In this document: piece by piece, positions 38,450 through 60,700 of the stretch | Numbering within the stretch: position 1 is the stretch's first letter | Layout: the number at the start of each line of letters is the position of its first letter | Source: Dethiobacter alkaliphilus | GTDB taxonomy: Bacteria > Bacillota > Dethiobacteria > DTU022 > UBA8154 | Length of the DNA stretch: 64,000 nt | Assembly: GCA_016841605.1 (NCBI GenBank) | Contig: JAENYV010000001.1 | Coordinates: 165,553-229,552 of the forward strand | Direction: 5' to 3' | Program-made: the position numbers and the translations under genes | Notes under the pieces: generated by a model | The model's input: the letters and a program-made list of their open reading frames with translations, nothing else | Database searches by the model: none | What the model was told of the DNA's origin: nothing

Positions 38450-38450
38450 G

Positions 38451-39452: not shown

Positions 39453-39545
39453 AGTAGCACATATAAACGGGTTTCATAAATAGGACGCTCGTACGGCGCT
39501 ATTTTTTGCTTTACTTAAATATTTATATTATTGGGAGGTTTTTTA

Positions 39546-40367: not shown

Positions 40368-40370
40368 TAA

Positions 40371-41180: not shown

Positions 41181-41229
41181 ATTTTAGGCGGTTAAGTAAA
41201 ACAAGCATTTTTGTTGGGGAGGACGGCAA

Positions 41230-43030: not shown

Positions 43031-43034
43031 GAGT

Positions 43035-44464: not shown

Positions 44465-47400
44465 ATGCTGATTACTAACAAAAATTGGTGGTACAGGCTC
44501 CTGCCGTCTATTTTGATTGTGCTCCTGCTTCCCTGTTTCTTCGGCCTGCCGGTACCGGCCGCTGTTCATTCCGAAGGGGGCATTGTTACAATAACAGAGC
44601 CCACCGGGAATATCAAGAATACCGTTAGCAAGGAAACAGCAAGCGGACCAGGCGGTTCGGCCGGCAACAATGTCACTTTTAAGGACCAGGTTCCCGTATT
44701 TTTGAACATGAATAATCCTGACGGTGTAACCGGGAAAGAAGTGTATGCAGGGCATACCTTATCCGGAACCGACGGCGCAACCCCCGCGGATACAGACAGC
44801 CGTGGATTTATCGTGGTAATGGATGAAGCCGGAATACCAGCTCCGGCTTTGACTGCCGATACCAGCGATAACCTGCTTGGGAAGTCCATAGATATTACCT
44901 TTACGGATAATGCCTCCTGGCGGGCGGCGATTAGCGGTGTGCTTGTGGACGGGGTAGCGCTGCAGTCCGGCAAATACACGGTAAGCGCCGGCAAAATCAG
45001 CATTTCCGGCAGCGTTTTCCAGGAATCGAAAGAATACGCCATTGTAGTTGCAGCCAATGGTTACACCGATGCAAGTGTGAGCCAGATAATCGGTACATTG
45101 ATAATTACCGGAGACGGGGTGACGGATCCCCAAATTTTTACGCAGCCCCAACTCGAGGCAATGCAGCCCCAGCTCGAGGAAATGGAGCCCCAGCATGTTG
45201 TTTACAGTTGCATTAATACCTGGCCCAGCAAGAAATGGTATGTGGGAAAAGGGGTCAAATTAGAAGACCTGCTCACCCAGGCGGGACTGAAAGAAACCGC
45301 CGAACAGATTAAATTCAGTTCCGTTGATGGCTACTATATGACGCTTACAGTCAAGGAGTTATTAACGGACAAGCGTTATTGTTTTCCCAATTTCAAAACC
45401 GGTGGCGACGGAGACGGGCATATTCCCGGTGACCCGTCGGGTGCATTCGAGGTGGAGACTATTCTAGGCCTGGTCAGCGCCGAGGGCACCGACGAATCTT
45501 CCTCTATGAACGATACAAATGCCCTGTTGCTGATGCTGGGGCAGCGGTCAGTTACCGAGCAAACAGGCCCCATATTTGTTAAATACGTCAATAAAATTGA
45601 AGTATTGACTGCTGCACCGGCTAAATGGGATAATCCGACGGCGAGCCCGGATAGTGGCATAGTATCTGCGGGGACCATGGTGGAACTGCATAGCAAGTAC
45701 AACGATTTGGATAAGGTCCATTATACGACGGACGGCAGTACTCCAACCATAGAAAGTCCCATGTATAACTGGATTGCCAGCCGGTGGTGGTCCTCGCGAC
45801 AGGATGTTAAGGACGAAATAAACCACCCGATTGAAATTACAAAGAACACCGCTATTAAGGCAATAGTAATCGGTCCAGGCAAAGAGGACAGCGATATTGT
45901 CACCTTCGAGTACCAGGTTCCTGTTATTATGAACACAGATAATCTTGCCGATGCAACCGAAAACGAAGCATACGCAGGTCATACCTTCACAGCGACAGGC
46001 GGAGCTGAGCCATACAGTTTTGCAGTAACTGCCGGGACACTGCCGGCAGGCATGGTTTTAAACGGTGCCGTATTGGAAGGAACGCCGACTGAGAGTGGGA
46101 CATTTCTCTTCACTGTAACCTTAACGGACAGTGCAGATCCCGCGGATGCAGACAGCCATGAGTTTACCCTGGCGGTTGATGAGGCTGAAGTAGTCACGCC
46201 GGTCTTGAATGCCGATACGACGGACAATAAAGTTGGACAGCCGATCGAGCTGACCTTTACGGATGATGGGCTCTGGCGTTCGGCGATTAGCGGTGTGTTT
46301 GTGGACGAAGTGGTGCTTCAGCCGGAGGAATACACGGTAAGCGCCGGTAAGATTAACATAGCTGCCGGAGTCTTCACGTCAGCAAAAGATTACAGTATCG
46401 TAGTGGAAGCCGAAGGGTACGAAGATGCGGCCGTGACGCAGATTATCACTACGTCGTCAACGCCGGAGACTAAGGAACCACCGGTTCTGACCGCCGATAG
46501 TAGCGATAACCTGAAGGGACGGCCGATCGAGCTGACTTTTACGGATGATGGGCTCTGGCGTTCGGCGATTAGCGGTGTGCTGGTGGACGAAGTGGTGCTT
46601 CAGCCGGAGGAATACACGGTAAGCGCCGGTAAGATTAACATAGCTGCCGGAGTCTTCACGTCAGCAAAAGATTACAGTATCGTAGTGGAAGCCGAAGGGT
46701 ACGAAGATGCGGCCGTGACACAGATTATCACTACGTCGTCAGCGCCGGAAACTAAGGAACCACCGGTTTTGACCGCCGATAATAGCGATAACCTGCTTGG
46801 GCAGGGTATAGATATTACCTTTACGGATGATGGCTCCTGGCGTTCGGCGATTCAAGAGGTTAGTGTGGACGGCGCGGTGCTTCAGCCGGAGAAATACACG
46901 GTTAGTGCCGGTAAGATTGCCATTGTTTCCGGCGTTTTCAAGGAATCGAAAGAATACGCCATCGTAGTTAAAGCAGGCGGGTACCCCGATGCAAGTGTGA
47001 GCCAAACGATTAATAGATTGGTAATTACAGGAGCCGGGGTGACTGAATCCAAGATGTTTACGCAGTCCCAGCTCGAAGCAATGTCGCAGCGCCAGTATGT
47101 GTACAGTTGCATCAATACCTGGCCCAGCAAAAAGTGGTATGTGGGAAAAGGGGTCAAATTGAGCGATCTGCTCACACAGGCGGGGATGAAGGGAAACGCC
47201 AAGCTCATTAAATTTTCTGCCGGCGATGGTTATGCCATGACACTTACTGTTCAGGAAATATTAACGGACAAGCGTTATCGTTTTCCTAATTTCAAGACCG
47301 GTGGCGATGGAGACGGGCATATTCCCGGCGATCCGTCGGGCAAAGTAGAGGTGGAAACTATTCTTGGGCTGGTCAGCGCCGAGGGCACGGACGACCCCTC

Positions 47401-49567
47401 TTATATGAACGACACAAATTCCCTGCTGCTGATGCTGGGACAGCGCTCAGTCATCGAGCAAACCGGCCCCTTATTTGTTAAAAACGTCAATAGAATTGAG
47501 GTACTTACTACTACTCCCGGCAAATGGGATACTCCAAAGGTGACTCCGAGTGGTGGAGAGGTGCCTGTTGGAACCATGGTGGAGCTGCACAGCCTTTTTG
47601 ACGACATGGATAAGGTTCATTACACGATGGACGGCAGTACTCCAACCATAGAAAGTCCCATGTATAACTGGATTGCCAGCCGATGGTGGTCTTCACGGGG
47701 CGAAGAAAAAGTAGCCGAGATTAATCACCCGCTTGAGCTGACAAAAGATACGGTAATCAAAGCAATCACAATTGGTTCCGGTAAGATGAACAGTGATGTT
47801 GTCACCTTTTCCTACAAGGTCAGAACAAGTGCGGACAGCAAAATTACCTCCGGAGAAGGCGGTACAATCAGCCTTGGAGAAGAAGCCGTTCTTGAAATAC
47901 CGGGAGGAGCGCTGACCGGAAGCGGAGCGAGGGAAGTAAAAATAGAACGTGTGGAAACAACTCTCTCGGCCCCGAAGGGCTTCAAGCTACTGGGTAGTGT
48001 ATATGAGTTCAGCGTGGGAGGCAAAAACAGCTACAATTTTGCCAAGAAAGTAACCATTAAGCTCAGCTTTGATGCCGGGGCTGTAAATGCGGACGAGACA
48101 CCGGCCATCCACTATTATGACGAAGCTGCCGGCGAGTGGATAAACCTGGGCGGGGAAGTAAGCGGGAATATAATTACTGTGCAGGTGGATCACTTTACTA
48201 AGTTTGCTGTTATTGCAGCCCTTCCCAGTACTGTGACTGTCAAAGTTGAGCCCCGCGAAGGGGGTACAGTAAGCCTTGGAGAAGAAGCTGTTCTTGCAAT
48301 ACCGGGAGGAGCGCTGACCGGAAGCGGAGCGAGGGAAGTAAAAATAGAACGTGTGGAAACAACTCTCTCGGCCCCGAAGGGCTTCAAGCTACTGGGTAGT
48401 GTATATGAGTTCAGCGTGGGAGGCAAAAACAGCTACAATTTTGCCAAGAAAGTAACCATTAAGCTCAGCTTTGATGCCGGGGCTGTAAATGCGGACGAGA
48501 CACCGGCCATCCACTATTATGACGAAGCTGCCGGCGAGTGGATAAACCTGGGCGGGGAAGTAAGCGGGAATATAATTACTGTGCAGGTGGATCACTTTAC
48601 TAAGTTTGCTGTTATTGCGGCGCTTCCCAGTACTGTGACTGCCAAAGTTGAGCCCCGCGAAGGGGGCACAGTAAGCCTTGGAGAAGAAGCTGTTCTTGCA
48701 ATACCTGAAGGAGCGCTGACCGGAAGCGAAGCACTGGAGGTAAAAATAGAGCGGGTGGTTGTACCTCCTGCTCCACCAGCGGGCTTCAAGCTGCTGAGCG
48801 ATATGTTTGATTTCAGTGTGGACGGCAAGAAGTGGTATCGCTTTGCCGGGGAAGTTACCATCAAGCTCAGCTTCGCTCCTGAGGTAAGAAAAGCGGAAGA
48901 GATCCCGGTTATTTATTGCTACGACGAATTCTCGCGGCGTTGGATAAACCTGGGCGGGGAGATAAACGGGACCACTGTTACTGTACAGGTGGACCACTTC
49001 ACCAAATTTGCCGTAATGGCAGCAATGGAGCAGGGATTGGCAGATATCGCCGGGCACTGGGCGGAATACAGTATTAAAGAACTGCTTACCCTTGGGGCTA
49101 TTAGCGGTTATCCGGACGGCACCTTTAAGCCCGACAAGATAATAACCAGGGCTGAATTTACCACAGTGCTGGCGAAGTCCTTTCAGCTTGAAAACAGGGG
49201 CGAAAAGACCTTTATCGACACTGAGGCACACTGGGCCAAAAATTACATAGCTGCGGCAGTAGCGGAGGGTATTGTCAATGGCTATGACACCGCGACCTTC
49301 GGACCGGATAATCCGGTCACCCGCGAGCAGATGGCTGTGATGACCGTCAAGGCGGCCAAAGTATCTCCGGAAGCAGGAGAGCCCCTCTTTGACGACAGCG
49401 GCAGTATCTCCGCGTGGGCCGGGGAAGCCCTGGTCACAGCGATGGAGAACGGGCTCATAGAGGAATATGCCGATAACACCGTCCGGCCTCAGAACAGTGC
49501 CACCAGGGCCGAAGCTGTTACAGTTATTGTGAATGCGTTGCATAAGGCGGGAGAGAGGAAAATATAA
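44465..49567 (+). CDS. Giant S-layer-homology (SLH) surface protein, 1700 aa, multi-module
   Basis: Signal peptide MLITNKNWWYRLLPSILIVLLL..AAVHS. Two super-modules each comprise He_PIG-like Ig (EAYAGHT..GG..PYSF..GTLPAG..L.G.L.GTPT), DUF1533/Shr-like repeats (LTADTSDN..G..I.ITFTDD..WR.AI), an Oxidored_molyb-like domain and CHB_HEX_C (VHYTTDGSTPT..SPMYN). These are followed by 3 x 134-aa repeats and 3 C-terminal SLH domains (AGHWAEYSIKELL.., EAHWAKNYIAAAV.., ISAWAGEALVTAM..). Confidence 0.9.
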   Translation: MLITNKNWWYRLLPSILIVLLLPCFFGLPVPAAVHSEGGIVTITEPTGNIKNTVSKETASGPGGSAGNNVTFKDQVPVFLNMNNPDGVTGKEVYAGHTLSGTDGATPADTDSRGFIVVMDEAGIPAPALTADTSDNLLGKSIDITFTDNASWRAAISGVLVDGVALQSGKYTVSAGKISISGSVFQESKEYAIVVAANGYTDASVSQIIGTLIITGDGVTDPQIFTQPQLEAMQPQLEEMEPQHVVYSCINTWPSKKWYVGKGVKLEDLLTQAGLKETAEQIKFSSVDGYYMTLTVKELLTDKRYCFPNFKTGGDGDGHIPGDPSGAFEVETILGLVSAEGTDESSSMNDTNALLLMLGQRSVTEQTGPIFVKYVNKIEVLTAAPAKWDNPTASPDSGIVSAGTMVELHSKYNDLDKVHYTTDGSTPTIESPMYNWIASRWWSSRQDVKDEINHPIEITKNTAIKAIVIGPGKEDSDIVTFEYQVPVIMNTDNLADATENEAYAGHTFTATGGAEPYSFAVTAGTLPAGMVLNGAVLEGTPTESGTFLFTVTLTDSADPADADSHEFTLAVDEAEVVTPVLNADTTDNKVGQPIELTFTDDGLWRSAISGVFVDEVVLQPEEYTVSAGKINIAAGVFTSAKDYSIVVEAEGYEDAAVTQIITTSSTPETKEPPVLTADSSDNLKGRPIELTFTDDGLWRSAISGVLVDEVVLQPEEYTVSAGKINIAAGVFTSAKDYSIVVEAEGYEDAAVTQIITTSSAPETKEPPVLTADNSDNLLGQGIDITFTDDGSWRSAIQEVSVDGAVLQPEKYTVSAGKIAIVSGVFKESKEYAIVVKAGGYPDASVSQTINRLVITGAGVTESKMFTQSQLEAMSQRQYVYSCINTWPSKKWYVGKGVKLSDLLTQAGMKGNAKLIKFSAGDGYAMTLTVQEILTDKRYRFPNFKTGGDGDGHIPGDPSGKVEVETILGLVSAEGTDDPSYMNDTNSLLLMLGQRSVIEQTGPLFVKNVNRIEVLTTTPGKWDTPKVTPSGGEVPVGTMVELHSLFDDMDKVHYTMDGSTPTIESPMYNWIASRWWSSRGEEKVAEINHPLELTKDTVIKAITIGSGKMNSDVVTFSYKVRTSADSKITSGEGGTISLGEEAVLEIPGGALTGSGAREVKIERVETTLSAPKGFKLLGSVYEFSVGGKNSYNFAKKVTIKLSFDAGAVNADETPAIHYYDEAAGEWINLGGEVSGNIITVQVDHFTKFAVIAALPSTVTVKVEPREGGTVSLGEEAVLAIPGGALTGSGAREVKIERVETTLSAPKGFKLLGSVYEFSVGGKNSYNFAKKVTIKLSFDAGAVNADETPAIHYYDEAAGEWINLGGEVSGNIITVQVDHFTKFAVIAALPSTVTAKVEPREGGTVSLGEEAVLAIPEGALTGSEALEVKIERVVVPPAPPAGFKLLSDMFDFSVDGKKWYRFAGEVTIKLSFAPEVRKAEEIPVIYCYDEFSRRWINLGGEINGTTVTVQVDHFTKFAVMAAMEQGLADIAGHWAEYSIKELLTLGAISGYPDGTFKPDKIITRAEFTTVLAKSFQLENRGEKTFIDTEAHWAKNYIAAAVAEGIVNGYDTATFGPDNPVTREQMAVMTVKAAKVSPEAGEPLFDDSGSISAWAGEALVTAMENGLIEEYADNTVRPQNSATRAEAVTVIVNALHKAGERKI
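46241..46804 (+). repeat. Near-identical 282-bp tandem duplication (2 units; DUF1533-like module)
   Basis: Anchor CCGATCGAGCTGAC occurs at 46241 and 46523. Both units encode PIELTFTDDGLWRSAISGV(F/L)VDEVVLQPEEYTVSAGKINIAAGVFTSAKDYSIVVEAEGYEDAAVTQIITTSS(T/A)PETKEPP. Confidence 0.9.
47861..49030 (+). repeat. 402-bp tandem repeat x3 (134-aa Ig-like module); units 1 and 2 almost identical, unit 3 diverged
   Basis: Anchor CGGGAGGAGCGCTGACCGGAAGCGGAGCGAGGG occurs at 47901 and 48303, with the diverged unit-3 counterpart (CTGAAGGAGCGCTGACCGGAAGCGAAGC) at 48705. Antisense ORFs 47812-48024 and 48190-48426 share identical translations, confirming DNA identity. Confidence 0.9.
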
Positions 49568-49620
49568 CGGCACAACCTGTTGAGAAACCAAGATTTTCCG
49601 AAACGGAGTGAAAGTGAAAA

Positions 49621-50205
49621 TTGAGTAAAATGTACCGGAAAAGAATTTCCTTTATAACAACTATAACAACGCTATCGTTATTGTTTTTTCTTCTAATGCT
49701 TTACCTTACGTTTTTGGCCGGATGTCAGGGTGGTCAGCCGACTTCAGCCGGAGAAGGTATTCTAGTAATACGGGGGGATGCTGTGGAAGGTGAAGTTTGC
49801 CTTACCCTGGATGAATTAAAGTCCATGGAGGACGGCCTGATTGAAGACGATTATTTTTCCGTTAATTCATACGGGACAAAGGAGTATTTTCATTTCAAGG
49901 GCATCTGGATCTGGCATGTTTTACAAGAAAAAACGGACTTAAAGGATAATGCCTCCAAGGTGACTTTCATTGCAGAGGACGGTTACACAGTGGAATACAC
50001 GCTGGAAGAGGTCAAGAGGGAAGATTATATTGACGAGCAAAATCCTGCGACAAAGTACAAGATGATCCTGGCCTGGGAAGAAAATGGAAAAGAGTATGAT
50101 CCGGATGAAGGCAATCCCTTTCAACTGGTCGTCGGTCAAAAGGAGCCGGGTGATGAAAACAAACCATACTGGGTGCGCAATGTAAAGACCATCCGCATTG
50201 ATTGA
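49621..50205 (+). CDS. Small lipoprotein with divergent Oxidored_molyb-like domain
   Basis: Signal peptide plus lipobox (LTFLAGCQG). LVIRGDAVEGEVCLTLDELKSM...FIAEDGYTVEYTLEEV...PFQLVVGQ...WVRNVKTIRI parallels the cassette of the large proteins (L.ITGDGV....T...LE.M....DGY..TLTV.E.L....LMLGQ....FVK.VN.IEV). The start may be the ATG at 49630. Confidence 0.7.
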   Translation: MSKMYRKRISFITTITTLSLLFFLLMLYLTFLAGCQGGQPTSAGEGILVIRGDAVEGEVCLTLDELKSMEDGLIEDDYFSVNSYGTKEYFHFKGIWIWHVLQEKTDLKDNASKVTFIAEDGYTVEYTLEEVKREDYIDEQNPATKYKMILAWEENGKEYDPDEGNPFQLVVGQKEPGDENKPYWVRNVKTIRID

Positions 50206-50261
50206 AGAAAGCAGGCCGACAACCGGTGAGTGAGAATGGTTCCTAAACTGGAGGTTATAGC

Positions 50262-51344
50262 GTGGAAGAAAAAATGAAAAAACATAAGAACTATTACCTG
50301 AGCAATCGGGATCTGCTTATTGTTGCTGTTTTGAGCGGTATCGGAGGAGTGATGAGTACCTATATCGGCTATCTGGGCAATCTCCTGAACCGTATTTGCG
50401 GTGTTCCTTTCGGTGCGGGACAGTTCGTCTCCGGTTTGCATATTTTCTGGTTTATCCTGGTGGCGGGGCTGATCAGGCGACCGGGAGCTGTTACCGTCGC
50501 GGGTCTGCTCAAAGGAGTAATTGAATTGCTCACCGGCAGTACCCACGGGGTTGTCATTGTCTTGATTTCTCTGATACAGGGTCTTATCGTCGATGTTGTC
50601 CTTCTGATTGCCAGGCGCCGGAATTTGGGAAGCTATATGCTGGCCGGCGGGCTTTCCGCCGCCTCAAATGTTTTTGTCTTTCAGCTCCTCTACTTTTCCG
50701 GTGTCCCTTTCACCTATCTTCTCTTTATAGGACTTTTAGCCTTTGTTTCCGGAGTTCTTCTGGCAGGCAGCTTTGGTCACAGTGTGCTGGATATTGTGTT
50801 GCAGGCCAGGCCTTTTCGTTTGGCCGATGCTTCAAGGGAAGAGACAGCCGCAACAGCCGCGACCCCCGGGAGCAAAAAAAGAGTCCTCCCCCGTTTAAGG
50901 ATTGCTGCAACGGTTCTACTGGTTGTGCTGTTTTTTATTGGTGCGGTTTATTACTTTACCGCTGTCTTTGAACCTCCCTGGGTAGGCCCCAGCTGCCGGG
51001 TAGAAGGAGCGGTAGAAAACCCCCTCTCTTTCCAGCTTTCCCGTTTCGACCGGTATGAAACAACCATAACCGCCGAATTAAAGGGGCAGGTTAGCTACAT
51101 CCCTCCGCAGGAGTATACAGGCATCCCCTTAAGTATAATTCTCCAGGAGGCCTCTCCCCTGGATGAGGCTAAAAAGCTTAAAGTTATGGCAACGGATGGT
51201 TATATGGTGGAATTTGAACTGCAAGAAGTGTTAAATGACGACCTGATGGTACTGATCCGGGAAGAAGATATGCTTCGCCTTATAGCCGGAAATTACGAAG
51301 GAGGATACTGGGTGAAACTGGTAAACAGAATGATAGTGGAATAA
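50262..51344 (+). CDS. Polytopic membrane protein: ECF-transporter-S-component-like N-domain fused to divergent Oxidored_molyb-like C-domain
   Basis: About 6 TM helices (LSNRDLLIVAVLSGIGGVMSTYIGY..GAGQFVSGLHIFWFILVAGL..LLKGVIELLTGSTHG..) plus a 7th TM. The extracytoplasmic part reads CRVEGAVENPLSFQLSRFD...VMATDGYMVEFELQEV...YWVKLVNRMIVE. Confidence 0.65.
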   Translation: MEEKMKKHKNYYLSNRDLLIVAVLSGIGGVMSTYIGYLGNLLNRICGVPFGAGQFVSGLHIFWFILVAGLIRRPGAVTVAGLLKGVIELLTGSTHGVVIVLISLIQGLIVDVVLLIARRRNLGSYMLAGGLSAASNVFVFQLLYFSGVPFTYLLFIGLLAFVSGVLLAGSFGHSVLDIVLQARPFRLADASREETAATAATPGSKKRVLPRLRIAATVLLVVLFFIGAVYYFTAVFEPPWVGPSCRVEGAVENPLSFQLSRFDRYETTITAELKGQVSYIPPQEYTGIPLSIILQEASPLDEAKKLKVMATDGYMVEFELQEVLNDDLMVLIREEDMLRLIAGNYEGGYWVKLVNRMIVE

Positions 51345-51656
51345 ATAAATCTTATTACTGAGGAAGAGCCGGACCAATGGGATGAGCCGACCTCATCGCA
51401 TGTATCGGGGACGGTAACGGCCGGGACACAGGTAACGCTCAATCATACCGGTATCAACGAGGTGAGAATTTATTATACAACTGACAGCAGCACCCCGGAT
51501 GTGAACAGTACCATGTACAATGTAAGCGCTACCTACTACCAGCCGCAGTTGAACGTACCTATTACGATCAACCAAACTGCTACAATTAAGGCTATCGCCA
51601 TCGGACCGGGTAAAACCGATAGCGATGTAGCTGTTTGGACCTATATGTTGGAATAA
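51345..51656 (+). pseudogene. In-frame post-stop extension of the 50262 gene encoding a complete CHB_HEX_C-like domain (nonsense-split or readthrough segment)
   Basis: A single TAA (51342-51344) separates ..VNRMIVE from the in-frame INLITEEEPDQWDEPTSSHVSGTVTAGTQVTLNHTGINEVRIYYTTDSSTPDVNSTMYN...ATIKAIAIGPGKTDSDVAVWTYMLE. That is the same junction (..IEVLT..P.KWD.P..) and domain order as in the intact paralogs. There is no RBS or ATG at its beginning. Confidence 0.6.
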
Positions 51657-51697
51657 CTGTTTTGGCTAAAGACAGCTAATGTTGTTGTCTAAAACGG

Positions 51698-52543
51698 TTA
51701 AACGGCTATCATGGTTACACCGATATTTACAGGCCGGCCAAAATACATGGAAGTGGTAACGATGGCATCCACTCCTGTTGCCGCATATTTTTCAACATTA
51801 GTTTCGTTTATTCCCCCGGCGGCAATGGTCAGAATGTGCGGGAAATCTTTTTTTATCTCCCGGACCAGGTCGGCTATTTTTTCGGGAGACAATTTATCAA
51901 ACTGTAACCCGTCAATACCCGCGTTGCATAAATAATCTGCTTCTTCCGGTTGTTCAATTTCTACGATTATCTTTTTTTCACAGGTTTTTGTTTTTAATTC
52001 CTGTATTTTTGCAGCCAGTTTGTCCTCCGATTCCAGGAAAACCCGGTGATGCTTAAAAATAAGTATTGTTTCCGATAAGCCGAGCCGGTGAGGAAAACCT
52101 CCGCCGCTCAAAACAGCCTTAATGGATAATTCTTTTGTTCCCGGGAATACCTTTCTTGTTGATAGTATAGAGACGTTCCGGTTTACTTTCTTCGCTTTTT
52201 CTACCAGCTTGTTGGTGCGAGAAGCCACTGCACTGGCATACTCCAGGATATTCTGGGAAGGTTTCCAGAGCAGGTGCAAAACATCTGCTTTACCGCTAAT
52301 TTTCATAAAGATCTGTCCGGGAAGGACTTTCGAACCTGAAGGGGTATATTCGAGCACCCGGCCTCCCTTTAGCTCACACAAACGTGCAATTTCCTCCGTG
52401 CCGCAAAGAACGGCTTCATCCCTGCTGAGGAAGTGCATTTCTCCGTCCCGGCTACCGATATTCAACATAAAGGTAGTGAGATCCATGTAAGGAGTATCTT
52501 CTTTAAGCCATTTTTCTAAAGTATCATTGGTGATATTAACCAT
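51698..52543 (-). CDS. modD: ModD-like protein (quinolinate/nicotinate-nucleotide phosphoribosyltransferase family)
   Basis: LEKWLKEDTPYMDLTT.., GKADVLHLLWKPSQNILEYASAVAS, TRKVFPGTKELSIKAVLSGGGFPHRLGLSETILIFKHH and a C-terminal TIM-barrel part (AAGGIN..N). It fits the ModD/QPRTase pattern. Confidence 0.7.
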   Translation of the reverse strand: MVNITNDTLEKWLKEDTPYMDLTTFMLNIGSRDGEMHFLSRDEAVLCGTEEIARLCELKGGRVLEYTPSGSKVLPGQIFMKISGKADVLHLLWKPSQNILEYASAVASRTNKLVEKAKKVNRNVSILSTRKVFPGTKELSIKAVLSGGGFPHRLGLSETILIFKHHRVFLESEDKLAAKIQELKTKTCEKKIIVEIEQPEEADYLCNAGIDGLQFDKLSPEKIADLVREIKKDFPHILTIAAGGINETNVEKYAATGVDAIVTTSMYFGRPVNIGVTMIAV

Positions 52544-52731
52544 GTTAAATCCTCCTGTATAGAATTAAGAGACCATCAAGCATTTAACAGACCGGACATT
52601 ACACGAAAGGACTGTTGATTTAGGGGAAGTATACCAAATTTCCTCCTTTATGTAAAGATATGCATATCCATGTGTCTCAATATGATTATATTAAGGGGCA
52701 AAATAAGCTGCAAATCAAAGTAGTTTTTCTG

Positions 52732-52785
52732 TTGACCCTCTTATTTTTATCATATATAATTTTCATGTATTGGTAAAAAAGACTA
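52732..52785 (+). promoter_or_regulatory. Conserved promoter/leader element, copy 2
   Basis: TTGACC 52732-37, 17-nt spacer, TATAAT 52755-60, then TTTCATGTATTGGTAAAAAAGACTAACTTTT. Confidence 0.7.
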
Positions 52786-52906
52786 ACTTTTGTGGTTACC
52801 AGCAATATGCATGCCGAAACATATCGCGCCTCAAGAGAGCGCTACCAGGTCCGGGACTGTTAATTATTTTTAATATACTGAATAAGACGGGAGAGAGGAG
52901 AGTATA

Positions 52907-54655
52907 ATGGCGCAGGGAAATAATCTTCAATTAAAAAAATGGTTGTATAAGCAATTAATAACCATTCCAGCTCTGTTATTACTTACTGCTTCGTTTTATC
53001 TGACGGCGCCTGCGGTTGCTTTGGCCATACAGTCGGACTCGCTGGAAATTATCGGGGACGGGGTGACGACTCCTGTGACGTTCACCTTGGCCGAGCTTGA
53101 GGCGATGAAGCAATACGAGCAAGTCTACAGTACGATCAACACTTATCCGACCAAGAGATGGTACACGGCAAGAGGGGTTAAATTGAGGAACCTGCTTGCT
53201 TTGGCAGGAATGACAGAAGAAGCCGAAATGATTAAGTTTATATCCAATGATGGCTACGATGTGACCCTTACGGTTAAAGAACTGCTGGAAGACAAACGGT
53301 ATTATTTTCCGGGTTTAAAGGAGAATCATCCCAGTGATGGAAGCATTCCAGGTTCTCCGGAGGGGGCGCAGGAGGTTGAGCCTATCCTTGCCCTTATCAG
53401 TGCCGAGGGCAGTGACAATCCGGCTAATATGAACGACAGGGATTTCTTGCTGCTGATGCTGGGGCAGCGGGCCGTAACCGAGCAGACGAATAATTTGTTT
53501 TTAAAATATACAAGTAGAATCGAGGTGCTTACCACTGCTCCGGAAAAATGGGATAGTCCGAAGACGAGTATTCCGGACGGCACCGTGCTGCCTCCGGGGA
53601 TCATGCTGGAATTGAGCAATAAGGGCAATGACGATGATAAAATTTATTATACCCTGGACGGCAGCACTCCCACGGTGAACAGCCCTATGTTTAACTGGAG
53701 CGCCAGTCGCTGGTGGCCTTTACGAGCGAATGACCTGGAGAGTGTCAACAGGCCGATCGAGCTTACGGAGGACACCGTCCTCAAGGCCATCACCATCGGT
53801 CCCGGCAGGGAGGATAGCGATGTGGTCACGTTTACCTTCACTACTGATCCCACGGCTGTGGACCCGACGAAGATCCCCGGCGGACCGCCGACCGGCGTGA
53901 CCCTCGACCGCAATGCAATTGACCTCAAAGTCGGCGCCACTTTTCAGCTGCAGGCGACGATAGCTCCGTACAATGCCACGGACCGGAGCGTAACCTGGAG
54001 TTCCAGTGATACCAGGACGGCCACGGTGGATAACAATGGCCTGGTAACCGTTGTCGGCCCGGGCTCGGCTACCATCACCGTAAAAACTTTAGTCGGCAAA
54101 TATATATCCTCCTGCATCGTGAACGGTCCTGAACAGGATGATGATGAAGGGGGCGCTATAATTGCCGGTCCCGTTTCTCCGGAAAATGAAGCCCAGGAGG
54201 ATCCTTTGGAGCCGTCGGCGGAAGAACCATTGGTGGAAGAGATTCAAGAAGAGGAGCTTTCAGTAGAGGAGCCGCCGCCATTACCGGAAGATGATCAGCA
54301 GTTCGTGGAAGATAAGGTTACGGCTGATCCCGCGACAGCACCTTCAAAAACCCCTGATAAAGCACCGGACTCTTCCGATGAACCACCAGTGGATGAGTTG
54401 CCTGTACCGGATGTCAAAGGGCAGTATTTGGCGGAAAAGGATGCAGTAGCACTCGCTTCACCCGCTGGCGATGTTTCCTCAGAACAGCCGGGTAGCCTTA
54501 CCCGGCAGATATTCGAAATGTCGCTTGATGTTACTGTACCATTGCCATTACAGGAGGTGCAAAACGAACTGAATATTTATACTGCTGCTATTTTCCTGTT
54601 TCTTTTTCTTTCCGGTATAAGCAAAAAAATCGTAGAATATGCAAAGGAGCTTTGA
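52907..54655 (+). CDS. Envelope protein: signal/TM - Oxidored_molyb-like - CHB_HEX_C - Big_2 Ig - acidic P/E-rich spacer - C-terminal TM anchor
   Basis: The cassette runs LEIIGDGVTTPVTFTLAELEAM..YSTINTYPTKRWY..IYYTLDGSTPTVNSPMFN. The Big_2-like part is VTLDRNAIDLKVGATFQLQATIAPYNATDRSVTWSSSD..ATVDNNGLVTVVGPGSATITV. The C-terminal helix is IYTAAIFLFLFLSGI. Confidence 0.8.
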   Translation: MAQGNNLQLKKWLYKQLITIPALLLLTASFYLTAPAVALAIQSDSLEIIGDGVTTPVTFTLAELEAMKQYEQVYSTINTYPTKRWYTARGVKLRNLLALAGMTEEAEMIKFISNDGYDVTLTVKELLEDKRYYFPGLKENHPSDGSIPGSPEGAQEVEPILALISAEGSDNPANMNDRDFLLLMLGQRAVTEQTNNLFLKYTSRIEVLTTAPEKWDSPKTSIPDGTVLPPGIMLELSNKGNDDDKIYYTLDGSTPTVNSPMFNWSASRWWPLRANDLESVNRPIELTEDTVLKAITIGPGREDSDVVTFTFTTDPTAVDPTKIPGGPPTGVTLDRNAIDLKVGATFQLQATIAPYNATDRSVTWSSSDTRTATVDNNGLVTVVGPGSATITVKTLVGKYISSCIVNGPEQDDDEGGAIIAGPVSPENEAQEDPLEPSAEEPLVEEIQEEELSVEEPPPLPEDDQQFVEDKVTADPATAPSKTPDKAPDSSDEPPVDELPVPDVKGQYLAEKDAVALASPAGDVSSEQPGSLTRQIFEMSLDVTVPLPLQEVQNELNIYTAAIFLFLFLSGISKKIVEYAKEL

Positions 54656-54661
54656 AGCAAG

Positions 54662-55333
54662 GTGACGGAATCTATTTTATTATCCTTAAAAGATACCATG
54701 CATGTCATCTCGTCAAATTTATTGATACCTACTATTATTATCCTGCTCCTACTTTTGGCTTTGACCGTAGTCGAACTCGGCGGTATTCTGGCGGAAACCC
54801 TGACGGAAAGACGCAGGATGAAAGTCGACGTGTCGGAGTTGGTTGACGCTTTTCAAGGGAAGGATGCCGGCAAGATTATGGACAAGATCGAGCATAGCCT
54901 TTTGTTACGGCGTCAGAAGAAGGTTCTCGGCAAGCTAATCAGGCACAGCAATTTGCCGTCTGCCTCGTTGCAGGCACTGGCGCGCCGCTTGCTTGCCGGT
55001 GAGGAACTGCATTATACCAAGATAACAAACAGGACCGATCTGGTGGTGCGTTTGGGTCCCATGTTCGGATTGATGGGCACTCTCATTCCACTAGGGCCGG
55101 GTATGATCGCCCTCGGCCAGGGGGATACCAAGACACTGGCAGATTCTCTGCTCATCGCCTTTGACACAACAATAACCGGCCTGGCAGCCGCGGGTATTGC
55201 TTTTGCCATTTCCCGGTTACGGAAACGGTGGTATGATGATTACTTGAGTAATCTGGAGGCCTTAATGGAGAGCCTATTGGAGGTGTTTGCTCATGAACGG
55301 GGGATTGAGAAGCAGGAGGTACAGGACGCATAG
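54662..55333 (+). CDS. MotA/TolQ/ExbB-family proton-channel protein
   Basis: GTG start. Three TM segments. LGPMFGLMGTLIPLGPGMIALGQG......LADSLLIAFDTTITGLAAAGIAFAISRL matches the ExbB/TolQ signature region. Confidence 0.8.
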   Translation: MTESILLSLKDTMHVISSNLLIPTIIILLLLLALTVVELGGILAETLTERRRMKVDVSELVDAFQGKDAGKIMDKIEHSLLLRRQKKVLGKLIRHSNLPSASLQALARRLLAGEELHYTKITNRTDLVVRLGPMFGLMGTLIPLGPGMIALGQGDTKTLADSLLIAFDTTITGLAAAGIAFAISRLRKRWYDDYLSNLEALMESLLEVFAHERGIEKQEVQDA

Positions 55334-55619
55334 GGAATCAGAAGATATCAATCCTCTGGAGGGCGTTATCAACATTGTAGATGCCATGCTGGTATTTGCC
55401 TGCGGACTTATGCTTGCTTTGGCTGTTTACTGGAACATCGACCTGGGCCCCATAGGAGAACGAATCAATATAAACCGTGGACGGGAGGTGACGGAAGTCC
55501 CGGAGTTACGTGACGACCTGATTGAAACCCAAGACCAGGGAAAGCTTTACGAAAGAATGGGCACCGTCTATAAAGACCCCGCAACCGGGCAGCTTTTTAT
55601 GCTGACCGACGAGGAATAA
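55293..55619 (+). CDS. DUF2149-like / ExbD-like single-pass partner of the ExbB-like protein
   Basis: ATG 9 nt after GGAGG, with a 41-nt overlap on the ExbB-like gene. EDINPLEGVINIVDAMLVFACGLMLALAV resembles the ExbD/DUF2149 N-terminal anchor. Confidence 0.6.
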   Translation: MNGGLRSRRYRTHRESEDINPLEGVINIVDAMLVFACGLMLALAVYWNIDLGPIGERININRGREVTEVPELRDDLIETQDQGKLYERMGTVYKDPATGQLFMLTDEE

Positions 55620-55643
55620 TAAAGATAAGGGGGGACTAGATCA

Positions 55644-57122
55644 ATGCAAGCTGATAAAAGGAAAGGGGAGACACCCCCGGCATATCCGCCGGAATCTTCT
55701 CAGTTAAAGAGATGGATTTACAGGTCCATGATGATTGTCCTGGGTATGTTAATGCTGGTAAGTATGTTTTACATGCCGTTGCCCGCGGTTGTCCATGCCG
55801 CGACGGACTCGCTGGAAATTACCGGAGACGGGGTGACGGACCCGCTGACCCTGACCCTGACCCAGTTAGAGGAAATGGAGCAATACCAGTATACATACAG
55901 TTGTATTAACACGTGGCCTACCAAAAAATGGTATGTAGGTAAAGGAGTTAAATTGAGCGATCTGCTCGCCAGGGCGGGGATGACCGATGAGGCCAGGCTG
56001 CTTAAATTTACGGCTGTCGACGGTTACACAGTGACGCTTACGGTCAAGGAACTGTTAAAAGATAAGCGTTATCGTTTTCCCAATTTCAAGAGCGGTGGCG
56101 GCGATGGTGACGGGCATACTCCGGGCGATCCTTCGGGTCAGGTGGAGGTAGTGACGATTATCGGCCTGGTCAGCGTCGAAGGCAGCGATAATCCCCAGTA
56201 TATGAACGATCTGAATACTTTGCTGTTGATGCTGGGGCAGCGTGCTGTAACTGAGCAGACAGGAAACCTTTTCGTTAAATATCTGAACAAGATCGAAGTA
56301 CTTACGGACGAGCCGGAAAAATGGGATGCACCGCAGGCCAATCCGGACAGTAGCACAGTGCCCGCGGGAACCATGGTGACACTGAGCAATCTCCACAATG
56401 ATGACGACAAAATTTATTATACCACGGACGGCAGTGAGCCGACCCGGAACAGCCCCATGTATAACTGGATTGCCAAGCGCTGGTGGTCATCACGGGCGGA
56501 TGTACTGGGAACCATCAATCACCCTATCGGACCCATTGAGAAAGATACAATCATCAAGGCGGTTACCATCGGACCCGGTAAAGCGGACAGCGATGTCGTT
56601 ACCTTCAAATATCAGGTTTCCGGGGCTGAGCCGGACAACGGGACATCAACGTCAACAGTCACACCCGGTCCGGAAGAGTCTGAGACAACAGAAGAACACG
56701 GGACAGATGAAATGAAAGGCGAAGTACCCGGGAAACCGTCGCAAAAAATTATCAAGCTTGCCATTGACCGGATGGAAGCGGATATTGACGGCAATACCTG
56801 CGCTCTGGAGGCAGCACCTTATCTCAACACCGAGGTCGGTCGTGTCCTGGTTCCGGTACGGTTTGTCAGCGAAGCCCTGGGTGCCGGAGTTAATTGGAAC
56901 CCGGAAAAAGGACAGATAACCGTCACCGATGAAGGAAAAGAAATTCTCCTGACCCTCGGTTCCGGCAATGTTCAGATCAACGGTATACCGCAGGCCGTTG
57001 ATTGTGTTCCGGTTACACTCCCGCCCGGCCGTACTTTTATCCCCCTCCGCTTTGTGAGTGAGACCCTTGGAGCGAAGGTGGGCTACAAAGCAGAGACCGG
57101 AGAGATCACCATCACAAGATAG
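55644..57122 (+). CDS. Envelope protein: signal/TM - Oxidored_molyb-like - CHB_HEX_C - T/E-rich linker - copper-amine-oxidase-N-like wall-binding domain
   Basis: The cassette runs LEITGDGVTDPLTLTLTQLEEM..YSCINTWPTKKWY..IYYTTDGSEPTRNSPMYN. The C-terminus reads VLVPVRFVSEALGAGVNWNPEKGQITV....TFIPLRFVSETLGAKVGY, the typical Cu_amine_oxidN1 repeat pair. Confidence 0.8.
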   Translation: MQADKRKGETPPAYPPESSQLKRWIYRSMMIVLGMLMLVSMFYMPLPAVVHAATDSLEITGDGVTDPLTLTLTQLEEMEQYQYTYSCINTWPTKKWYVGKGVKLSDLLARAGMTDEARLLKFTAVDGYTVTLTVKELLKDKRYRFPNFKSGGGDGDGHTPGDPSGQVEVVTIIGLVSVEGSDNPQYMNDLNTLLLMLGQRAVTEQTGNLFVKYLNKIEVLTDEPEKWDAPQANPDSSTVPAGTMVTLSNLHNDDDKIYYTTDGSEPTRNSPMYNWIAKRWWSSRADVLGTINHPIGPIEKDTIIKAVTIGPGKADSDVVTFKYQVSGAEPDNGTSTSTVTPGPEESETTEEHGTDEMKGEVPGKPSQKIIKLAIDRMEADIDGNTCALEAAPYLNTEVGRVLVPVRFVSEALGAGVNWNPEKGQITVTDEGKEILLTLGSGNVQINGIPQAVDCVPVTLPPGRTFIPLRFVSETLGAKVGYKAETGEITITR

Positions 57123-57150
57123 TTCTTTCTTACAATCAGGCCTTAACACT

Positions 57151-57186
57151 GCCAGAGCCGTTTGACGTAGTGAATACGGCTCTGGC
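57151..57186 (+). terminator. Candidate terminator hairpin after 55644 gene
   Basis: GCCAGAGCCGT-(14 nt)-ACGGCTCTGGC is an 11-bp perfect stem, but it has no downstream T-tract. Confidence 0.35.
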
Positions 57187-57256
57187 CTAGAAAACGGCTG
57201 TATTTGGGCAATATCCATGGTGACTGAAACATACGCTTTATGTTGACAACTTTTTG

Positions 57257-57310
57257 TTGACACCCCTTGTTTTTCCTATATAATTTAGTTGATTGGTAAA
57301 AAAGCCAACT
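57257..57310 (+). promoter_or_regulatory. Conserved promoter/leader element, copy 3
   Basis: TTGACA 57257-62, 16-nt spacer, TATAAT 57279-84, then TTAGTTGATTGGTAAAAAAGCCAACTTTTT. The spacer CCCCTTGTTT is identical to copy 1. Confidence 0.65.
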
Positions 57311-57439
57311 TTTTGCAGTAATATTAAATACAAACCGGTCAATTGTTATTTTAACAGGCACAATTAAGCATGAAGGGGTTTTTTTACGCACATTATGTCT
57401 GAATTGGCATATTGATGGCACTTAAACGGAAAACATTCG

Positions 57440-57740
57440 CCTTCGAGGAGAGATGTTCGCAGGGACCATGGTGGAATTGAGTTCTCTTGAGGCCTTGATG
57501 GATAGTCTGTTGAAGGTAGTTTTTCCGTGGACGGGGGATGGGAGCATAAGGCAATGCTTAAAGCTTCTGATGAGGATAATCCTCCGGATAAACTGACGAC
57601 ATCGTGAAAATTATGTCGGTAGTTGTTTGCAGTAGTATTTGCATCGGCTATTTATTGTTAGGAAGATCCCGGCCTGGCAGAGAGCTCAGTAGTTTAAAAT
57701 TATTGGACGGGAGGTGACATAAGTCCCGGAGATACGTATC
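57440..57740 (+). pseudogene. Degenerate relics of a second exbB-like 3' end and DUF2149-like gene
   Basis: 57486-57517 (CTTGAGGCCTTGATGGATAGTCTGTTGAAGGT) aligns with the intact CTGGAGGCCTTAATGGAGAGCCTATTGGAGGT at ~55253. 57705-57737 (GGACGGGAGGTGACATAAGTCCCGGAGATACGT) aligns with GGACGGGAGGTGACGGAAGTCCCGGAGTTACGT at ~55480. No intact ORF is present. Confidence 0.6.
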
Positions 57741-57783
57741 GTTCAAGAAGAAGAAAATCAAGTATTAAAGGAGTGTATGCTCA

Positions 57784-60700
57784 ATGCAAACAGTAAAAAA
57801 AAGATGGTGGTACAGGCTTGTACCATCCATCCTGAGTGTGCTGATGATCGTCTGTTCGTTCGGCATGGCGGCACCTGCGGCTGTTTATGCTGTGGACGAT
57901 ATTGAACCTCCTGCCTGGCCGGCAGAGAGCGAATTAACCGCGGATGTCTGCGGCAGCAGTGTGACCTTGAGCTGGCCTGCGGCAACCGATAACGTAGGGG
58001 TTGTCTGCTACGAGGTTTATAAAAACGACGGTCTCATTGATACGGTGACCGGTGCCACTCAGAGAAGCTGCACTGTCTCCGGACTCGATCCTTCTGTCTA
58101 CACCTTCGGCGTACAGGCTGTGGATGACGCCGGCAATCACAGCGAAGCCTTAACGGCCGACGCCACCGTAGAAGCCGTTGCCCTTACAGTTACCGGAGAC
58201 GGTGTAGAGACTCCCATGACCTTTAGCATGACCGATCTACAGGAAATGGAACAGTACCAGCATTTGTACAGTTCAATTAACACCTGGCCCACCAAAAAAT
58301 GGTATGCCGGAGAGGGCGTCAAGCTGACGGACCTTTTAGCCTCCGCCGGAATTAAGGATGAAGCCACGCTGATTACCGTAAAAGCAACTGATGGTTATAG
58401 AATGACGTTTACCCGTCAAGAACTGGTGGAGGACCCCCGCTATTATTATCCGGGTTTGAGAGAAAATGCGGAATATGACGGATCTATACCGGGCTCTCCG
58501 GAGGGGGCGCAGCAGGTGGAGACCATCATAGCACTGCGCAGCGCACAAAGCAATAGCTTAGCAAATATGAATACATCCGATGCTCTGCATTTGCTGATGG
58601 GGCAGAGGTGGGTTACCGAACAAACCAACAACGCGTTTGTGAAACATACCGGGACAATTGAAGTCTCTACTGAGGCCCCGGAAAAATGGGCAAATCCCAT
58701 CGCAGATCCGCCGTCCGGGATTGTGCCCGCGGGGACCGGGGTAATTTTTGACCCTGTCAATATAAATGACATGGACGGGGCCAATTTCCATTATACCACG
58801 GACGGCAGTGATCCTACTTTTGAGAGTCCCATGTATAACTGGATTAAATACCGGTGGTGGTTTAATCGCCCTGACGACCTGCCGATTATAAACCATCCCA
58901 TTAACGTAGACAAAAGTATGACAATTAAAGCGGTGGCTATCGGTTTTGGCAGGGAGGATAGCGATATCCTTACTTTCAATTACCAGGTTCCTCTGCTCAT
59001 TGACACCGGTAATCCTGCCAATGCAACCGAGAACGAAGCCTATGCGGGTCATACCTTTATAGCGGCAGGCGGAGTAGAACCGTACAGTTTTGCGGTAACT
59101 GAGGGAACACTGCCGGCAGGTATGGAACTGAACGGTGCGATATTGGAAGGAACACCGACGGCAAGCGGGACATCTGTTTTCACTGTAACCGTAACCGACA
59201 GTGCAAATCCTGCGAATACAGGCAGCCATGAGTTTACCATGGTGGTAGACGAAGCGGGCGCAGCACCGCCGGCCTTGACCGCCGATACTAGCGATAACAA
59301 AGTCGGACAGGCCATAGATATCACCTTTACCGACGATGCGGCCTGGCGGGCGGCTGTCGGCGGAATAAAAGTCAATGATACTGATTTAAACGGCGAGCAG
59401 TATACACTTGGCGAAGGTAACATCAATATTATTGCCGACGTATTCACCGCTGCCGGTGATTACGTAATTACGGTCCAGGCAACGGGATATGTCGATGCCG
59501 CAGTAACCCAGACCGTAACAGTTGCATCTTCGGACCCGGACGATTTTTATGTATACCAGGGTATATTGGTAGCATACTACGGTTCCGGTGGTGATGTGAT
59601 CATTCCGGATAATTTAGATATAACCGGCATTGGGGGGAGTGCGTTTAGTAATTTAACCAGCCTGACCTCCATAAGCATCCCCGAAGGAGTCACCAGCATT
59701 GACAATAGTGCCTTTCGTGACTGCAGCAACCTGGTTTCAGCCGTCATTCCCGGCACCATTACCAGCATTGGAAACGGTATTTTTTATGATTGCAGCAGCC
59801 TGACTTCGGTCACTATCTTCGAAGGAGTCACCGGCATTGGAGAGCAAATGTTTCGAAATTGTACCAGTCTGGCCTCGCTAACTATCCCCAATAGCGTTAC
59901 CGGTATTGGAGAAAATGCCTTTCTCGACTGCAGCGGCTTGACCTCGCTAACTATCCCCGGCAGCGTTACCGACATTGGCGAAGGTGCCTTTAGAGGTTGC
60001 AGCGGCCTGACTTCGCTAAGTATCCCCGGCAGCGTTACCAGTATGGGAAGGTATGCCTTTCGCGATTGCACTAGCCTGACCTCAGTTACTATCTCTGAAG
60101 GTGTTACCGACATTGGAGAGGATGCTTTTAACGGTTGTAGCGGTCTGACTTCGATAGCTATCCCCGGCAGTGTTACCGGCATTGGAGAAAGTGCCTTTAG
60201 CGGTTGCAGCGGCCTGACTTCAGTCACTATCTCTGAAGGTGTTATTAGCATTGGAGAAGATGCTTTTAGCGGTTGCAGCGGCCTGACTTCAGTTACTATT
60301 CCCGGTAGTGTCACCAGTATTGGAACTAGTGTCTTTAATGTGTGTACCAGTTTGACAACAATTAATGTAAATCCAAGTAACCTCAATTATACCGGTGATG
60401 GTGGGGTATTGTTCAATAAGCTTTTAACAGTACTTGAATGCTATCCGGCTGGAAAAACAGGGGAATATATTGTGCCTGACGGCGTTGAAGCTATTGGCGA
60501 AAGTGCTTTTTCTTCTTGCATCAACCTGGGCTCGCTAGTTTTTCCCGATAGTGTCACCAGCATTGGAGAGTATGCCTTCCGTAACTGTAGCGGCCTGACT
60601 GCGGTTACTATTCCCGGCAGCGTTACCAGTATGGGAAGATATGCTTTTAGAGGTTGCAGCGGCCTGACTTCACTTACTATCTCCGAAGGAGTCACCAGCA

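Follow-up and report, generated by a model that had tools for sequence, protein, structure and literature searches.

In enzymes of the sulfite oxidase (SUOX) family a single conserved Cys ligates molybdenum (Mo), and exported enzymes that carry the molybdenum cofactor (Moco) are loaded with it and folded in the cytoplasm before export by the Tat pathway. The same fold was described in 2024 as reused for a pterin receptor, PruR, a single-domain periplasmic protein of ~170 amino acids (aa) in Proteobacteria, encoded in an operon with the GGDEF-EAL enzyme DcpA; PruR has no Cys, its truncated cleft is unable to accommodate Moco, a Trp takes the Cys position at the tip of a hairpin, and pterins are bound (PDB 7KOS/7KOU, 7KOM, 7KP2, 7RKB; PMC11194511). 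A stretch of 64,000 nucleotides (nt) from Dethiobacter alkaliphilus (GenBank assembly GCA_016841605.1, contig JAENYV010000001.1, positions 165,553 to 229,552; this whole stretch is called the window below) encodes five copies of a cassette for which PruR proteins are the closest described relatives. The principle is shared (a secreted SUOX fold without the Mo-Cys and with a truncated cleft), whereas architecture, taxonomy, partner genes and one key contact residue differ. In a preliminary description of the window the five copies were reported to carry Cys, Cys, Thr, Cys and Ser at a putative Mo-ligand position, and it was proposed that the family is either a non-catalytic binding module or split into two functional subtypes. 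The former is the better of the two alternatives (the Cys is not conserved, the domain is truncated and there is no Tat signal): the five copies are probably paralogous extracellular modules, each a truncated SUOX domain joined to an Fn3_assoc domain, that serve in non-catalytic binding independently of the Cys.

All five cassettes lie on the forward strand, and each consists of a ~175-aa domain with a weak match to PF00174 (Oxidored_molyb) followed by ~90 aa of Fn3_assoc/CHB_HEX_C_1; their pairwise identity of 47-73% over ~283 aa excludes a chance match and marks them as true paralogous repeats. Copies 1 (45089..45937, of which ~45089-45619 is the SUOX-like domain) and 2 (46988..47836) belong to the giant SLH-anchored open reading frame (ORF) 44465-49567. 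Copy 3 (53012..53860) is in ORF 52907-54655, where it is followed by Big_2, an acidic/Pro-rich linker and a C-terminal membrane anchor; copy 4 (55782..56630) is in ORF 55644-57122, which ends in a Cu_amine_oxidN1 domain; and copy 5 (58153..59001) is in a giant LRR/NosD ORF, which begins at 57784 and is still open where the window stops. Against the PF00174 cut-off of 24 bits, ORF 55644 scores 35.1 and ORF 44465 scores 29.4 (two copies summed), while ORFs 52907 (21.1) and 57784 (18.7) fall below; with two above the threshold, ancestry from Moco enzymes is clear. Regular-expression searches of the translated ORFs recovered the variable motif, YS-C/C/T/C/S-INT(W/Y)P, in five matches: YSCINTWPSKKWY at aa 247 and aa 880 of ORF 44465-49567 (nt 45203 and 47102), YSTINTYPTKRWY at aa 74 of ORF 52907-54655 (nt 53126), YSCINTWPTKKWY at aa 85 of ORF 55644-57122 (nt 55896) and YSSINTWPTKKWY at aa 162 of the ORF from 57784 (nt 58267). 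The variable codon is TGC (Cys) at 45209-45211 and 47108-47110, ACG (Thr) at 53132-53134, TGT (Cys) at 55902-55904 and TCA (Ser) at 58273-58275. The range of 45190-58290 first given for these motifs holds for all five except at its end, which the last motif slightly passes (nt 58305). The second variable patch was found divided as originally described, GGDGDGH(I/T)PGDPSG in three copies (GGDGDGHIPGDPSG twice and GGDGDGHTPGDPSG once) and DGSIPGSPEG in the other two, copies 3 and 5; the accompanying motifs Y(C/R)FPNFK and Y(Y/F)PGL(K/R)EN are likewise present.

The initial premise of a Moco (SUOX) fold is correct, as shown by profile and structural matches. When the family profile was compared by hhalign with a template set of 12 YedY-like/SO-like sequences (E. 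coli MsrP together with 11 homologues from plasmids) plus a SorA fragment, it matched with a probability of 97.9% (E 6e-13) over MsrP precursor residues 109-260, and an AlphaFold2 (AF2) model of the copy 4 domain (176 aa; pLDDT 86.5) resembles SUOX structures. The figures in the fold comparison, which are given without a label, are 15.3 for SorA (2BLF), 14.5 for SoxC (2XTS), 13.2 for PruR (7RKB), 13.0 for nitrate reductase (2BII), 12.9 for chicken sulfite oxidase (2A99 / 1SOX), 12.3 for YedY (1XDQ), 11.9 for PruR (7KP2), 11.7 for the Thermus sulfite dehydrogenase (8S5S) and 10.4 for SorT (4PW3). A search of PDB sequences with the five-copy profile returned nothing relevant; with a 47-sequence profile it gave weak partial matches to SorA and PruR.

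In the numbering of the 176-aa model, used from here on, the hairpin strands are 35-44 and 47-57 and the motif reads Y39 S40 C41 I42 N43 T44 W45 P46. The Mo-Cys, verified on PDB sequences, is C102 in YedY (mature numbering) and C104 in SorA. Two hhalign runs, one with a YedY-like-only template (97.2%) and one with a close-family query (95.4%), place residue 41 exactly on C102, the former aligning INTWP with VEAWS (CINTWP vs CVEAWS). With the mixed template C102 falls within a 2-residue insertion directly after residue 41; a Viterbi run without realignment, which is ungapped, sets C102 on N43, the conserved Asn two residues later; and a weak HMMER alignment with Vibrio vulnificus PruR (full-sequence E 0.08) pairs W45 with the PW-motif Trp. 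The proposal that the variable residue occupies the Mo-ligand position is thus borne out by two hhalign runs and nearly so by the other runs realigned for maximum accuracy (MAC), where the two are adjacent, but not by the Viterbi run. Judged by these alignments, residue 41 is probably the Mo-Cys equivalent, the alternatives lying 2-4 residues downstream in the same hairpin.

Conservation was evaluated across the wider family. A profile search of 1.84 billion cluster representatives gave 1003 relatives at E <= 0.001, 186 of them below 1e-30, and many have 2-10 cassette copies per protein; column statistics were calculated from 294 domain instances (the 150 best representatives plus the window), with position 41 represented in 255. 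Position 41 is occupied by Thr in 26%, Ala in 19%, Ser in 18%, Val in 9% and Cys in 6%, and the Cys seen in three of the five window copies is a minority state family-wide. The preliminary description had allowed that the ligand might be an invariant Cys elsewhere; none exists among the 294 domain instances, since no column exceeds 10% Cys, the figure for the Cys-richest one. A disulfide role for Cys41 was also considered and rejected, because a Cys at position 98, the one further column rich in Cys (9%), accompanies Cys41 in just 2/11 cases. The residues that are strongly conserved are Y39 (91%), S40 (82%), N43 (84%), P46 (72%), G55 (99%), D80 (96%), R96 (84%), Y97 (89%), G152 and Q153 (99%), E158 (81%) and K166 (85%), and position 82 is Tyr in 64% and Phe in 20%. 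Some members of the family are publicly annotated as "molybdopterin-dependent oxidoreductase" or "DMSO/TMAO reductase YedYZ catalytic subunit"; these Moco-enzyme annotations are probably wrong.

Sorting the cassette proteins of 67 related genomic loci by gene position shows what the subtypes are. The protein encoded directly upstream of an ExbB-like gene (the type of ORF 52907) has Thr (42), Val (9) or Ala (6) at residue 41, never Cys, and Ser at residue 112 in 54/59 cases (the DGS loop); the protein encoded directly downstream of a DUF2149 gene (the type of ORF 55644) has Ala (26), Cys (19), Ser (9), Thr (2) or Val (2) at residue 41 and His or Asn at residue 112. In the window the giant LRR protein of ORF 57784 also bears the DGS loop. 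The two functional subtypes suggested earlier are therefore real as paralog lineages, distinguished by loop and gene position, but Cys defines no functional class. Thus the pairing of Cys with the GDGDGH loop holds for all 11 Cys41 instances that have the loop (each with His112 and YRFPNFK), but the GDGH loop, the mark of the remaining cassette proteins, also occurs with Thr (12), Ala (7), Ser (6) and Val (5); and the pairing of Ser or Thr with DGSIPGSPEG holds insofar as the DGS loop marks the protein upstream of ExbB, but Thr, Val and Ala all occur there and Thr and Ser are found with the GDGH loop too. Within one lineage Cys swaps freely with Ala and Ser, unlike a metal ligand and as fits a position that needs only a small residue. 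The statement that at least two copies cannot ligate Mo in the canonical way is accordingly sound for the Ser and Thr copies, and its argument extends to all five. What survives of the earlier interpretation is the fold, probably the position and, likely, the non-catalytic character; the Cys/Ser/Thr difference is functionally meaningless, and the subtype split reflects gene lineage and not cofactor chemistry. As a separate observation, the GGDGDGH(I/T)PGD loops (45401-45442, 47300-47341 and 56097-56138) resemble calcium-binding loops of the DxDxDG type; they are insertions relative to YedY, are missing in about half of the family domain instances, and have lower model confidence.

The domain is also truncated. 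In the hhalign alignment the cassette counterpart starts at YedY mature residue 65, leaving the N-terminal 64 residues unmatched; in ORFs 52907 and 55644 the domain begins directly after the signal peptide, and the segment preceding the L-x-I-x-G-x-V strand, part of a complete Moco domain, has no counterpart. In YedY the N-terminal segment contacts Moco, as is generally known and as agrees with the account of the truncated site in PruR. Leaders of the cassette proteins are of the Sec or lipoprotein type: an RR-type Tat motif was found in 4/206 proteins with an N-terminal cassette, and these four matches look spurious, compared to 9/10 YedY-like controls with a recovered N-terminus. No heme or other redox domain was found in the cassette proteins by a Pfam domain scan of the window ORFs. 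Given the lack of a conserved Cys, the missing N-terminal Moco segment and the absence of Tat signals, all five copies are most likely non-catalytic binding modules resembling PruR. By these sequence features it is very probable that they are not canonical Moco enzymes; that they bind a ligand, for which the analogy to PruR argues, is a probable but less secure conclusion.

Comparison with the two described groups indicates how far the cassette departs from each. The fold is common to the SUOX Moco enzymes (YedY/MsrP 1XDQ, SorA 2BLF, SoxC 2XTS, chicken sulfite oxidase 1SOX), but the cassette is without their conserved Cys, N-terminal Moco-binding segment, Tat signal, and heme or dimerization partner domain, and has a family-specific loop insertion (GDGDGH or DGSIPGS) as well as a 5-residue insertion after GQR. 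With PruR it may share pterin-contacting residues, since N102-x-Y104 of PruR matches D80-G-Y82 of the cassette in a manual sequence comparison made without superposition; the PW motif of PruR corresponds to WP in the cassette in a weak HMMER alignment. However, unlike PruR the cassette recurs as a module within large wall, membrane and S-layer proteins of Bacillota (492 to >2000 aa), its hairpin is 3 residues longer between shared Leu and Gly anchors, and it bears a GQR...EQ signature of its own, is joined to an Fn3_assoc domain and has an ExbB/DUF2149 pair as partners. Judged by sequence, the cassette thus lacks the defining features of the SUOX enzymes (Cys, complete domain, Tat) and of PruR proper (single domain, DcpA partner).

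The partner pair is the most constant element of the gene neighborhood. A proton-channel protein of the MotA/TolQ/ExbB family (54662..55333, forward strand; PF01618, 35.9 bits vs a cut-off of 22.9) is encoded starting 6 nt after the stop of ORF 52907-54655, and is overlapped by 47 nt by the gene for a single-pass DUF2149 protein (55287..55619, forward strand; PF09919), which ends 24 nt before ORF 55644. ORF 52907-54655 itself ends in a C-terminal segment (54575..54655, forward strand) made up of a hydrophobic helix (IYTAAIFLFLFLSGI) and a basic tail (SKKIVEYAKEL), and the tail is kept in its positional orthologs. Among long related loci the ExbB-like gene is present in 37/38 and DUF2149 in 38/38, and the ORF immediately upstream of ExbB encodes a ~540-650-aa protein with an N-terminal cassette in 59/61 loci; the three-gene unit of DGS-type membrane-anchored protein, ExbB-like protein and DUF2149 protein is thus conserved in 59/61 related loci. 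The listed tails of the upstream ORFs end alike (...VFEMS..TVPLPL...IYTAAIFLFLFLSGAGKRYAEYAKE), and a tail of the IYTAAIFLFLFLSGAGKRYAEYAKE type is read from its sequence as a membrane helix with a short basic cytoplasmic tail. In DUF2149 the Asp at the start of the hydrophobic segment (NPLEGVxNIxDAMLVFACGLMLAL) is invariant in 63/63 loci; ExbD and TolR have an essential Asp to which it is comparable. An ExbB-family/DUF2149 gene pair also occurs as hmuU/hmuV in the heme-uptake operon of P. gingivalis. No description of the family or of its linkage to ExbB/DUF2149 was found in the literature on this domain combination. It may be noted separately that the C-terminal ~80 aa of ORF 52907 (nt ~54420-54655), with the VFEMS..TVPLPL juxtamembrane motif, the hydrophobic helix and a KRYAEYAKE-like tail, resemble an anchor of the TonB/TolA type with reversed polarity.

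The hosts of the related loci are anaerobic, largely syntrophic Bacillota (Syntrophomonas, Pelotomaculum, Desulfoscipio, Sporotomaculum, Desulfotomaculaceae, Thermovorax and Dethiobacteria), and one related contig is labelled Bacteroidales. DNA identity of the window to any related locus is at most ~70%, and the gene order of two of these loci, L002 and L003, is the same as in the window. In the former, from a Syntrophomonadales metagenome-assembled genome, a group II intron reverse transcriptase (RVT_1 + GIIM; 2117-3529) lies just upstream of the homologous cluster.

Two further genes of the window cluster carry more distant versions of the domain and were omitted from the preliminary description. 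One encodes a small lipoprotein with a LAGC lipobox and a SUOX-like domain (49621..50205, forward strand), in which a Ser within a YFSVNSYG motif is the apparent counterpart of the variable residue in the cassette motif; the other encodes a PF09819 membrane protein with a C-terminal SUOX-like domain (50262..51344, forward strand). The family name of PF09819 is 'ABC-type cobalt transport system, permease component' ('ABC_cobalt'), and the protein is read as an S component of the energy-coupling factor (ECF) type. Lipoprotein versions of the cassette are common among the relatives, and in the long loci the PF09819 membrane protein (its N-terminal part) is found in 13/38 and an ABC ATPase in 16/38. 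The SUOX-like domains of the two genes also give weak NCBIfam matches to SorA/SoxC models and to a 'GEGP motif-containing diheme protein' model.

A mechanism can be proposed in which the old cofactor cleft would be reused, as in PruR, for non-catalytic binding of a small putative ligand. Residue 41, on the ascending strand of the Mo-Cys hairpin and at the Cys position or two before it, would then need only to be small or beta-branched (T/A/S/V/C). The modules are displayed at several depths of the envelope, on the SLH-anchored giant, the Cu_amine_oxidN1 protein, the lipoprotein, the PF09819 membrane protein and the C-terminally anchored long-linker protein, and the proton-driven ExbB/ExbD-like pair would drive the membrane-anchored module protein in the way that ExbBD drives TonB, bringing about capture of the putative ligand or its hand-over between modules across the wall towards a membrane transporter. 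Two known systems offer partial likenesses. As in ExbB-ExbD-TonB and TolQRA, a MotA/ExbB-family protein is accompanied by a small single-pass partner that has an invariant Asp where its hydrophobic segment begins, and the operon adds a single-pass membrane protein that carries a distal globular domain and a long acidic/Pro-rich spacer. As in the Isd/Shr NEAT heme relay, one module is repeated on proteins at different envelope depths and adjoins a membrane transporter, and Shr-like HID domains occur in the same giant proteins as the cassette; however, the fold is SUOX and not NEAT, there are no sortase signals and nothing points to heme, so that the resemblance is one of architecture only. By these analogies a motor-coupled relay is a possibility to be entertained tentatively. 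The fuller proposal, an undescribed TonB-like envelope machine in which an ExbB/DUF2149-energized relay of SUOX modules would import a scarce cofactor-like ligand in lineages regarded as having no outer membrane, is more speculative still. The host Bacillota lineages are generally regarded as single-membraned, and an outer-membrane receptor is therefore not expected. A pterin, a molybdopterin or a Mo/W-related compound is an attractive guess for the ligand, because of the ancestry of the fold and because a ModE/TupA-type regulator lies beside the cluster in two genomes.

Several observations weigh against parts of this interpretation. The model is less confident in the very hairpin on which the argument turns (pLDDT ~69 for residues 41-50), and the Cys-equivalent residue would lie somewhere among 41 and 43-45, depending on the method of alignment. 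The choice of register leaves the non-catalytic conclusion unchanged, since no column has more than 10% Cys, Cys amounts to only 6% at residue 41, and positional orthologs exchange Ala, Cys and Ser. Molybdopterin binding may nevertheless have been retained without Cys ligation. In a weak HMMER alignment the second pterin-stacking residue of PruR, W160, falls on K166 of the cassette, a Lys that true SUOX enzymes also have there, so that a simple pterin is not necessarily what the cassette cleft binds. A Pfam search with DUF2149 yielded no ExbD match, even with E values up to 10 admitted. The cassette anchor protein is the reverse of TonB, being anchored by a C-terminal helix where TonB has an N-terminal anchor, and has no TonB_C domain; this leaves gene order and architecture as the whole of the case for a motor-coupled relay. 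Finally, linkage to Mo/W genes is not general, as a ModE-like gene occurs in 3/38, ModA in 1/38 and ModD in 0/38 long related loci.

The alternative farthest from non-catalytic binding is that the Cys copies (two in ORF 44465, one in ORF 55644) act outside the cell as true Mo/W Moco oxidoreductases, with the Ser and Thr copies as their degenerate partners. The two hhalign runs that put Cys41 exactly on YedY C102, the PF00174 scores of both Cys-bearing proteins, the YRFPNFK and GDGH signature shared by 11/11 looped Cys instances, and the ModABC, ModD and ModE/TupA-like genes of the window would all suit such enzymes. This reading is nonetheless very unlikely, because the ortholog at a given gene position varies from species to species among Ala (26), Cys (19) and Ser (9), the cassette is missing the N-terminal Moco-binding segment, leaders are of the Sec or lipoprotein type and not Tat, the cassette proteins have no heme or redox domain, and Mo-gene linkage reaches 3/38 loci at most. 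That the cassettes are strict pterin sensors or receptors of the PruR kind, binding a secreted reduced pterin in order to signal rather than import, also appears improbable: no DcpA-like GGDEF/EAL gene adjoins the cluster in the window, L002 or L003, the W160 position of PruR is not conserved, giant multi-domain wall proteins with up to 10 copies each are unlike a soluble 170-aa sensor, and the strongest conserved link is to the ExbB/DUF2149 pair, against which stand the weak HMMER alignment that covers the hairpin with its PW-motif Trp and the similarity of the D-G-Y motif to the pterin contacts N102/Y104 (PMC11194511).

A third possibility dispenses with a ligand, the SUOX fold being a mere scaffold in a structural or adhesive surface module for cell-cell or cell-substrate contact in syntrophic consortia. 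The hosts are indeed largely syntrophs dependent on contact with a partner, and in giant surface proteins the cassette co-occurs with LRR_5, Big_2, He_PIG, Shr-like HID, SLH and NosD/beta-helix domains. However, a passive adhesin would not be expected to be tightly linked to ExbB/DUF2149; the strongly conserved residues include many that are polar (Y39, S40, N43, D80, R96, Y97, G152-Q153-R154, E158-Q159 and K166), several of which align to segments lining the SUOX cofactor cleft, and the PF09819 membrane-protein fusion and the lipoprotein versions point to transport. The adhesive explanation is thus unlikely. Two candidates for the transported substrate were rejected or reduced during the analysis. 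Uptake of heme or a corrinoid, suggested by BtuCD-like genes in the window, was rejected, as BtuC or FecB-like genes occur in 0/38 of the related loci. The idea that the cluster is a Mo/W uptake system was reduced to a weak lead by the co-occurrence of 3/38 at most.

If the module is non-catalytic, the enzyme names of its members are wrong and mislead metabolic reconstruction of anaerobic digesters. The SUOX fold would then have been put to new use a second time, independently of PruR and in a far more elaborate form, in Gram-positive envelopes. With PruR known, the variation of the residue is by itself unremarkable, and it is the conserved motor-linked gene unit that constitutes a worthwhile lead: the near-obligatory linkage of ExbB/DUF2149 to an anchored module provides a testable candidate for a proton-motor-coupled surface system in Gram-positives, where such systems are poorly understood. 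A role in scavenging a cofactor or metal would, if true, be ecologically relevant in these hosts, because syntrophs depend heavily on Mo/W enzymes.

The cassette cluster is flanked in the window by a Mo/W uptake island, which comprises a ModE-N/TupA-like fusion regulator (31662-32828), ModA, ModB and a WtpC/ModC-like ATPase (39531-41958) and, on the reverse strand, ModD (51698-52543); in L003 a similar ModE/TupA-like regulator is directly upstream of the cluster (1196-2365). Between the regulator and ModA are a BtuF/FecB-like binding protein, a BtuC-like permease and a heme/corrinoid-type ATPase (33027-36184), and after these come a methyltransferase, an SBP_bac_6 protein, a HypB/MobB-like P-loop protein and an atypical ABC ATPase (36867-39452). 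Directly upstream of the cluster lie a gene for an AmmeMemoRadiSam-like radical SAM enzyme (42029-43030) and, overlapping it by 26 nt, a 390-aa ORF (43005-44177) that matches no Pfam or NCBIfam family.

The giant proteins show internal repeats outside the cassettes. In ORF 44465-49567, aa ~1130-1500 consist of three tandem repeats of ~125 aa (EGGTVSLGEEAVLAIPGGALTGSGAREVKIERV...), the first two nearly identical, which sit between the second cassette and three SLH domains and match no Pfam family. ORF 57784-64000, cut off by the end of the window, has fn3, the cassette, He_PIG, two large blocks of Shr-like HID and BspA-type LRR_5, and then NosD/beta-helix; over ~85 aa the HID sequence hardly differs between the two blocks, which points to a recent duplication within the ORF. 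Elsewhere in the window, a class II lanthipeptide synthetase-like gene (DUF4135 + LANC_like, 1089 aa) is found on the reverse strand at 20277-23546, and a tellurite/toxic-anion-resistance-like cluster (StiP, AIM24, YceG_bac, TelA) at 111-6246 has, from ~2 kb onward, a GC content of ~36-38%, vs 45-52% in most of the window.

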